9,344 bases of DNA, from the IMG/VR virus record IMGVR_UViG_2636415858_000001; one strand, 5' to 3'. The notes beneath the pieces were generated by a model. It saw only the letters and a list, made by a program, of their open reading frames with translations. It was not told the origin of the DNA and searched no databases. Each line of letters begins with the position of its first letter. Position 1 is the first letter of the stretch. This stretch comes from a virus. Lineage: Duplodnaviria > Heunggongvirae > Uroviricota > Caudoviricetes. This document shows positions 6,747-6,825 of this stretch, one piece after another. Position numbers and translations under genes: made by a program.

Positions 6747-6799
6747 GTACATTGTGTGTCCATGGGGTACATTGTGTGTCCATGGGGTACATTGTCAAG
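6747..6799. repeat. tandem direct repeat, 20-bp unit GTACATTGTGTGTCCATGGG, about 2.6 copies; operator-like
   Basis: Two identical units at 6747-6766 and 6767-6786, then a partial third GTACATTGTCAAG. The GGTACA(T)TTGT core recurs in the cI-cro intergenic region (7541-7546, 7591-7600). Unit junctions form TGTGTCC-ATGG-GGTACA, an imperfect version of the palindrome at 7528-7548. Confidence 0.6.
6771..6799 (-). promoter_or_regulatory. candidate leftward promoter (pL-like) overlapping the operator-like repeats
   Basis: On the minus strand there is a perfect -35 TTGACA (plus 6794-6799), a 16-bp spacer, and a -10-like CACAAT (plus 6772-6777). This sits just downstream of the cI terminator and points toward the AT-rich gene and the early-left genes. 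Confidence 0.35.
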
Positions 6800-6800
6800 T

Positions 6801-6825
6801 ATAAAAAAACCTGCCGAAGCAGGTT
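6801..6825 (-). terminator. intrinsic terminator of the repressor gene
   Basis: Minus-strand RNA would be AACCUGC-UUCG-GCAGGUU followed by UUUUUUUAU: a 7-bp stem, a UUCG tetraloop and a 7-U tract, starting 12 nt after the cI stop codon (6838-6840). Confidence 0.75.

Follow-up and report, generated by a model that had tools for sequence, protein, structure and literature searches.

Does the tandem 20-bp repeat that lies immediately to the left of the repressor gene of this prophage belong to its genetic switch and, if so, why does it look like a direct repeat rather than a set of separate palindromic operators? The 9,344-bp stretch of DNA that we analysed (the window) is a decayed lambdoid prophage beside tRNA-Thr(CGT) (1369-1444), downstream of a long host ORF (1-1254). 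Gene and domain searches located an integrase (1459-2622, minus strand), IS3-family transposase genes orfA/orfB (3113-4268) and further IS genes (orfA at 8480-8818 and another from 9018), and an ALIL frameshift pseudoknot was identified at 9299-9344 using Rfam. Because homology to related prophages stops at 8443, the rightward operon ends prematurely with ymfL; the immunity region of this decayed prophage, i.e. cI, cro and ymfL, is intact. The initial annotation proposed that the interval 6747-6825, which comprises the repeat, a -35 hexamer and the cI terminator, is the counterpart of the leftward operator-promoter (oL/pL) of lambda. Our analysis favours the same reading, with a probability of roughly 0.8: the interval is predicted to be the leftward early operator-promoter of an e14/SfV-type lambdoid prophage, in which a third site arose by slippage duplication. 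The putative operator shares its motif with oR, has a phylogenetic footprint and is conserved in distant phages, and its counterpart in Escherichia coli K-12 lies upstream of ymfJ, a gene that is co-induced with the right arm of its prophage.

Operator-like sites and a predicted leftward promoter beside cI

Tandem Repeats Finder reported a single array in the whole window, at 6746-6795, with a period of 20, 2.5 copies, 100% matches and the consensus GGTACATTGTGTGTCCATGG; a repeat-family search also recovered it (families D1 and D2). The array, originally estimated at about 2.6 copies, is therefore real. Within it, a perfect match at a lag of 20 spans 30 nt, for which the chance expectation is ∼4^-30 per position, making a chance origin of the repeat impossible. 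As had been suggested, the unit junctions recreate a palindrome: at each junction there is a 17-bp site, TGTGTC-CATGG-GGTACA (general form TGTGTC-N5-GGTACA), and a third, weaker 17-mer, TGTTTC-GTTTT-GGTACA, is found one period further left. Motif searching thus gives three operator-like sites, namely (i) O_L1 at 6775-6791, (ii) O_L2 at 6755-6771, a duplicated copy that is identical to O_L1, and (iii) O_L3 at 6735-6751, which corresponds to the ancestral distal site. The left half of this putative distal site (TGTTTC) is poor, which counts against the operator reading.

We compared the repeats with the sites between cI and cro by searching the window for the motif TGTACC-N5-GGTACA with at most two mismatches. 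This gave 5 matches in 9,344 bp against 0.18 expected, a number that was reached in 0 of 200 shuffles. Three of the matches are at oL (6735, 6755 and 6775) and two are at oR (7530 and 7580), with none elsewhere in the window; at this threshold the motif that the repeats have in common with the cI-cro palindromes is confined to these two regions, and oL contains multiple copies of the oR operator motif. The window has 13 occurrences of the bare hexamer GGTACA/TGTACC (∼4.5 expected), of which 6 fall within the two 60-bp regions that make up oL and oR. The motif search assigned three sites to oR (7530-7596): a perfect palindrome, TGTACC GCTAA GGTACA (7530-7546); AGTATC TTGAA GGTTCA (7547-7563), which matches at 9 of 12 positions and overlaps the likely -35 of pR; and TGTACA CTGGA GGTACA (7580-7596). 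The SfV record, in which operators are annotated only between cI and cro, labels this stretch a 'putative operator region'. Since the sites at oL abut, an alternative register, GGTACA-N3-TGTAYC, also fits there. In the form GGTACA-N3-TGTACC this register has three matches within the immunity region; however, the strongest palindromes of oR are not among them, and the register is not conserved at oR in distant relatives, so the TGTACC-N5-GGTACA register is preferred.

A promoter scan of the minus strand placed the -35 hexamer TTGACA at 6798-6793 and, after a spacer of 16 nt, the -10 hexamer CACAAT at 6776-6771, exactly as the initial annotation had described them, with the -35 overlapping the rightmost partial repeat unit. 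Together the two hexamers match the consensus at 10 of 12 positions, and from their location transcription from pL is predicted to start at ∼6763-6765 on the minus strand. In purely geometric terms, O_L1 is located between the two hexamers, in the promoter spacer, while O_L2 extends over the final base of the -10 hexamer and the predicted start. The pL hexamers lie across cI (6838-7512, minus strand) from oR, downstream of the intrinsic terminator of the cI transcript (6800-6826, minus strand), and are directed away from cI. The terminator consists of a stem of 8 bp with a loop of 4 nt, followed by a T run that adjoins the -35 of pL; its hairpin (6826-6807, minus strand) directly follows the cI stop codon. 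Both the SfV and the Ayreon record mark it as a terminator, and the latter also has a predicted promoter at the position of pL. An Rfam scan of the whole window (E ≤ 1) gave no match in 6400-7600, the only matches being tRNA-Thr and the IS3-type ALIL pseudoknot. On the plus strand, a weak hairpin (GTGGGCATCCTGCCTGT) followed by a T-rich run (TTGTTGTTTCGTTTT) is present at 6714-6745 and ends inside the distal operator-like site; it resembles a terminator for rightward transcription and relies on G-T pairs, so the resemblance may be fortuitous.

The cI gene encodes a YmfK-type repressor of 224 aa, with an N-terminal DNA-binding domain and a C-terminal Peptidase_S24 domain (E = 9e-25), whose profile is nearest to that of the lambda cI C-terminal domain (E about 1e-8). 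The motifs of a LexA-type self-cleavage domain are intact, i.e. the QAG cleavage motif (from residue 99), VIGDSM, which contains the GDSM motif (from residue 134), and FKRL (from residue 175). The N-terminal domain gave no Pfam match, and its only PDB relatives, both weak, were SPC32H Rep and a phage CI. On the other side of oR, comparison with related records identified a cro/YmfT-type gene of 66 aa (7603-7806, plus strand). The likely -10 of pR (7575-7580) reads TGATGT in the lineage of the window versus TAATAT in nearly all relatives, the key A at the second position being gone.

Conservation of the sites with the cI DNA-binding domain

We compared the immunity module in 80 IMG/VR loci whose cI has an identity of 98% or more, 7 loci of representative genomes, 86 metagenome contigs and more than 120 further viral contigs. 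The usual condition in the ∼275 related loci is a pair of sites with a 20-bp spacing, i.e. two 17-bp palindromic sites with 3 bp between them, in the arrangement TGTTTC-N5-GGTACA-TTA-TGTATC-N5-GGTACA-TTGTCAAG with the minus-strand promoter TTGACA-16-CATAAT. The bearers of two sites include E. coli K-12 e14, phages SfV and SfIV, Stx2c phages, and Hafnia and Edwardsiella phages. Among 45 unique relatives the column entropy is 0.14 bit in the half-sites and 0.03 bit in the -35 hexamer, compared with 0.82 bit in the N5 spacers and 0.91 bit in the left flank, and 49 different N5 spacers are found among 108 unique sequences. In all 108 of these sequences the homologue of O_L1 matches at 10-12 of 12 positions, and in 94 of them the distal site reaches 10 of 12, figures that should be read bearing in mind that the set was gathered partly by a search pattern, which itself imposes part of the conservation. 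Fixed hexamers flanking free central bases are the pattern to be expected of a dimeric helix-turn-helix operator. They do not represent a coding pattern, and the 20-bp indel that separates the window from its relatives would shift the frame of any ORF.

The sites are inherited with cI: the ∼275 loci of this cI type keep them, and the left-arm DNA differs just beyond. The cI protein is 97-99% identical in e14, SfV, SfIV, Ayreon, the Cdt-I phage and a set of Stx2c phages, and in the Ayreon/Stx2c-type phages homology to the window ends just left of the distal site, which makes the sites part of the exchangeable immunity module. Both sites, the 20-bp spacing and TTGACA are also kept in Hafnia phage yong2 (cI 79% identical) and Edwardsiella phage EPP-1 (74%), where the sequence left of the sites is different and, in EPP-1, the terminator differs too. 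A more distant relative, Pseudomonas phage vB_Pae_CF3a, encodes a 263-aa regulator whose N-terminal 71 residues are 59% identical to those of cI, with an invariant PTQ.SR stretch, and whose C-terminal part differs. The divergent control region of this phage (1416-1483) contains three TGTACC-N5-GGTACA sites at offsets of 0/16/51, compared with 0/17/50 at oR of the window. Because distant relatives, including the Pseudomonas phage, keep the motif together with the N-terminal domain, the operator motif can be said to follow the DNA-binding domain; the sharing of both by vB_Pae_CF3a shows that the same DNA-binding domain and operator set have passed between phages of enterobacteria and phages of Pseudomonas.

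Immunity of this type is widespread, with examples in K-12 e14, the Shigella serotype-converting phages, and the phages that carry the Stx2c and Cdt toxins; of 5,426 complete E. coli genomes, 2,449 contain DNA that matches the 2.6-kb region around cI, where most of the matches are partial. The element in the window is a member of the well-known oL/pL class, and its putative operator sequence, TGTAYC-N5-GGTACA, has to our knowledge not been described before.

Proposed control of pL and the 20-bp duplication

In the mechanism that we propose, the YmfK-type cI would bind as a dimer to the 17-bp TGTAYC-N5-GGTACA sites, and Cro would probably bind to the same sites. With 3 bp between the sites, their centres would be 20 bp apart, or about two helical turns, so that the dimers would lie on one face of the DNA; this would favour pairwise cooperativity via the C-terminal domain, the part of the protein that is nearest to lambda cI. 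As O_L1 fills the spacer of TTGACA-16-CACAAT and its neighbour overlies both the last part of the -10 and the start point, RNA polymerase would be excluded wherever repressor is bound. Leftward transcripts from pL would leave cI behind them and pass via a conserved leader into the left arm, and pL and pR would be derepressed at the same time once the repressor cleaves itself under stimulation by RecA. Cooperative looping between oL and oR, which are ∼750-800 bp apart, is plausible but speculative.

The element follows the lambda paradigm: its design is that of ordinary lambdoid phages, and only the local variant is rare. As is proposed for the window, oL/pL of lambda (OL1-OL3) consists of several 17-bp, partly palindromic sites over a strong sigma-70 promoter directed away from cI, oR is built with the same motif, and the C-terminal domain of the repressor is LexA-like and self-cleaving. 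Operator sites in lambda are 3-7 bp apart (Ptashne, A Genetic Switch), and such short spacers provide a precedent for the 20-bp centre-to-centre spacing. Unlike lambda, the window has TGTAYC/GGTACA half-sites, a cI whose N-terminal domain lacks a Pfam match, and a terminator directly between cI and pL; the norm for its family is two sites rather than three, and no more than ∼750-800 bp separate its oL from oR, because there are no rex-like genes in between. The number of oL sites does vary among lambdoid phages: phage 933W reportedly has three OR but only two OL sites, an arrangement that the ancestral two-site oL of the window would resemble, although the repressor and operator sequences of 933W are unrelated to those of the window.

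Among its own relatives, the window shares the terminator, TTGACA, the operator motif and oR with e14, SfV, SfIV, Ayreon and the cdtI and Stx2c phages; these have two sites and a -10 of CATAAT, whereas the window has three sites, a TGTGTC half-site and the -10 CACAAT. Its own allele (TGTGTC CATGG GGTACA) is found as a single unit, i.e. with O_L2 missing, in two closely related loci (L004 and L006). L004 is 99.5% identical to the window, and its 20 gap positions are the 20-bp duplication; L005, which has the duplication, is 99.9% identical over 4.6 kb with no gaps. L005 is the 1 IMG/VR contig with the three-site pattern, which was found in 0 metagenome contigs, compared with more than 120 and 86, respectively, for the two-site pattern. 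When complete E. coli genomes were searched by megablast, the 66-bp repeat region gave no match and the best match of a 301-bp query was 89% identical, indicating that the allele of the window is absent from this collection. Judged from these alignments, the extra 20-bp unit is a slippage duplication that is private to the lineage of the window and also recent, because relatives that are 99.5% identical do not have it. An A-to-G change would have extended the flanking direct repeat from GGTACATT to the 10-bp GGTACATTGT, a plausible substrate for slippage.

Slippage between these 10-bp direct repeats would have inserted a second full-strength site over the start point; the weak ancestral site would thereby have been displaced downstream by 20 bp, to about +14 to +30, without losing its helical phase. 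The appearance of a tandem repeat therefore results from abutting 17-bp sites with 3-bp linkers combined with a recent private duplication. The initial description of the locus as tandem direct repeats, unusual for an operator, does not hold as a statement about its design, because the family norm is two palindromic sites 3 bp apart and the extra unit is the private duplication. No second promoter is created by the duplication, because the -35 is outside the repeat unit.

The duplication is predicted to leave repression of pL equal or to make it tighter, and it may be neutral. The most serious alternative, to which we give a little less than even odds, takes this last point further: the operator-promoter would be genuine and the extra 20-bp unit a neutral slippage product with no regulatory consequence, i.e. 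drift in a decaying prophage. The duplication is seen in one lineage only (the window and one IMG/VR contig), the prophage has IS insertions and a nonsense mutation, and the 10-bp direct repeat GGTACATTGT flanking the unit eases slippage, all of which speaks for this reading. However, the new full-strength copy coincides with the predicted start and keeps the helical phase, and one would expect repression to be affected to some degree. The same lineage is also altered at the -10 of both pL and pR, which could reflect either a common selective direction or merely decay; CACAAT at pL is weaker than the CATAAT of the relatives, a point against the oL/pL reading as a whole, and with TGATGT at pR both early promoters may be weakened in this remnant. 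We consider it unlikely, but deserving of mention, that the duplication is an adaptive operator gain in a domesticated prophage that accompanied the -10 changes at pL (CATAAT to CACAAT) and pR (TAATAT to TGATGT). If it were, the early promoters of the remnant would be locked off while its intact cI still gave immunity to e14-, SfV- and Stx2c-type phages, and operator copy number evolving by slippage would be a tuning knob of the genetic switch. Prophage decay, as seen in the IS insertions and the nonsense mutation, may mean that the element is no longer important to the host. The two-site and three-site alleles, occurring naturally in prophages that are 99.5% identical, form a pair with which operator number can be related to repression and to the induction threshold.

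Other candidate regulators, SOS induction and the pL leader

The preferred reading, that the repeats are cI operators at oL/pL, can be weighed against three other roles for them. One is that the 20-bp-spaced repeats are sites at which the CII-like protein YmfL, acting as an activator, switches on a leftward promoter for establishment or integration. YmfL (7835-8404) matches Pfam Phage_CP76 in a profile search, and the 20-bp periodicity recalls the site geometry of phage 186 CII, for which the half-sites are two helical turns apart. However, CII-dependent promoters have a poor -35, and that of pL is a perfect TTGACA; nor is the palindromic motif absent from the cI/cro operators, as it is common to the cI-cro intergenic region. 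The motif also travels with the cI DNA-binding domain, even to a Pseudomonas phage regulator with a different C-terminal part, and control by YmfL is accordingly very improbable.

The induction of e14 bears on the proposed mechanism and on the second alternative, that host LexA controls pL directly. In K-12, e14 has the same pL/oL module upstream of ymfJ, in the form of the two-site allele. The e14 promoter has its CATAAT at 1,202,197-1,202,192 of NC_000913.3, and the model places the start 7 nt further downstream, at about 1,202,185 on the minus strand. With this allele, the late rise of ymfJ in the SOS response is nearly the same as that of the rightward gene ymfM (PMC11002266). The hupAB mutants co-induce xisE, ymfJ and ymfL 34-48 fold (PMC2634741), ymfJ is listed first among the five most up-expressed transcripts of a dam mutant (PMC11741368), and left-arm and right-arm e14 genes fall into one iModulon (PMC12132413); ymfJ of e14 is thus strongly inducible by SOS and shares its regulation with the ymfT-ymfM operon. 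Published SOS lists of the LexA regulon do include ymfJ and intE (PMC11002266), in keeping with direct control by LexA, but induction of the e14 genes lags that of true LexA targets by ∼40 min, which the authors of that study credit to a CI-like repressor (PMC11002266). Furthermore, the LexA box CTGT-N8-ACAG is missing at ≤1 mismatch from 2229 to 8178: at this threshold there is no match near 6700-6830, and the three matches in the whole window lie elsewhere and are at chance level. Direct control by LexA can therefore be given almost no weight. Our literature searches found no published operator mapping for YmfK/CohE, SfV or e14, and no binding, footprint, start-site or reporter data for this element or for any phage of its immunity type. 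The 17-bp operator and the pL/oL model thus offer testable targets for the SOS induction of e14 (ymfJ and sfiC/ymfM) and for the induction of toxin phages. As a separate observation, a 77-nt sRNA, svsR, is reported from the 3' end of cI in the e14-like prophage NC-SV (PMC12803456); the matching place in the window is the 3' end of cI at ∼6838-6915, and svsR might lie beside the terminator and oL if the cI of NC-SV is of the present immunity type.

The third alternative, replication iterons or arm-type sites for a recombinase or excisionase, for which direct repeats of ∼20 bp are typical (iterons and directionality-factor sites), is just as hard to credit as LexA: the repeats, flanked by the cI terminator and the leftward leader, are distant from int (1459-2622) and from all replication genes; members of the family normally have just two sites, not three or more beside an initiator gene or an AT-rich origin; and the oR palindromes are built of the same motif.

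Immediately downstream of pL there is a conserved leader block of ∼63 nt (6672-6734, minus strand), which is retained beside oL across at least four unrelated left-arm modules and which is replaced in the Ayreon/Stx2c-type phages. It contains a covarying hairpin at 6682-6703, with the compensatory changes CTTGG/CCAGG, CCTGG/CCAGG, CCGGT/ACCGG and CCCGG/CCGGG. We used the patterns of G-U versus C-A pairs to ask which strand the hairpin forms on, and different variants favour different strands. The block might act in the leader RNA, as an element that serves its processing, antitermination or stability. Beyond the leader, the first ORF downstream of pL in this left-arm type, past ∼435 nt of untranslated sequence, is an AT-rich gene of 198 aa with a hydrophobic N-terminus (5732-6328, minus strand); it carries a CAA-to-TAA nonsense mutation at codon 47 in the window and is intact in E. 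coli ECONIH4.
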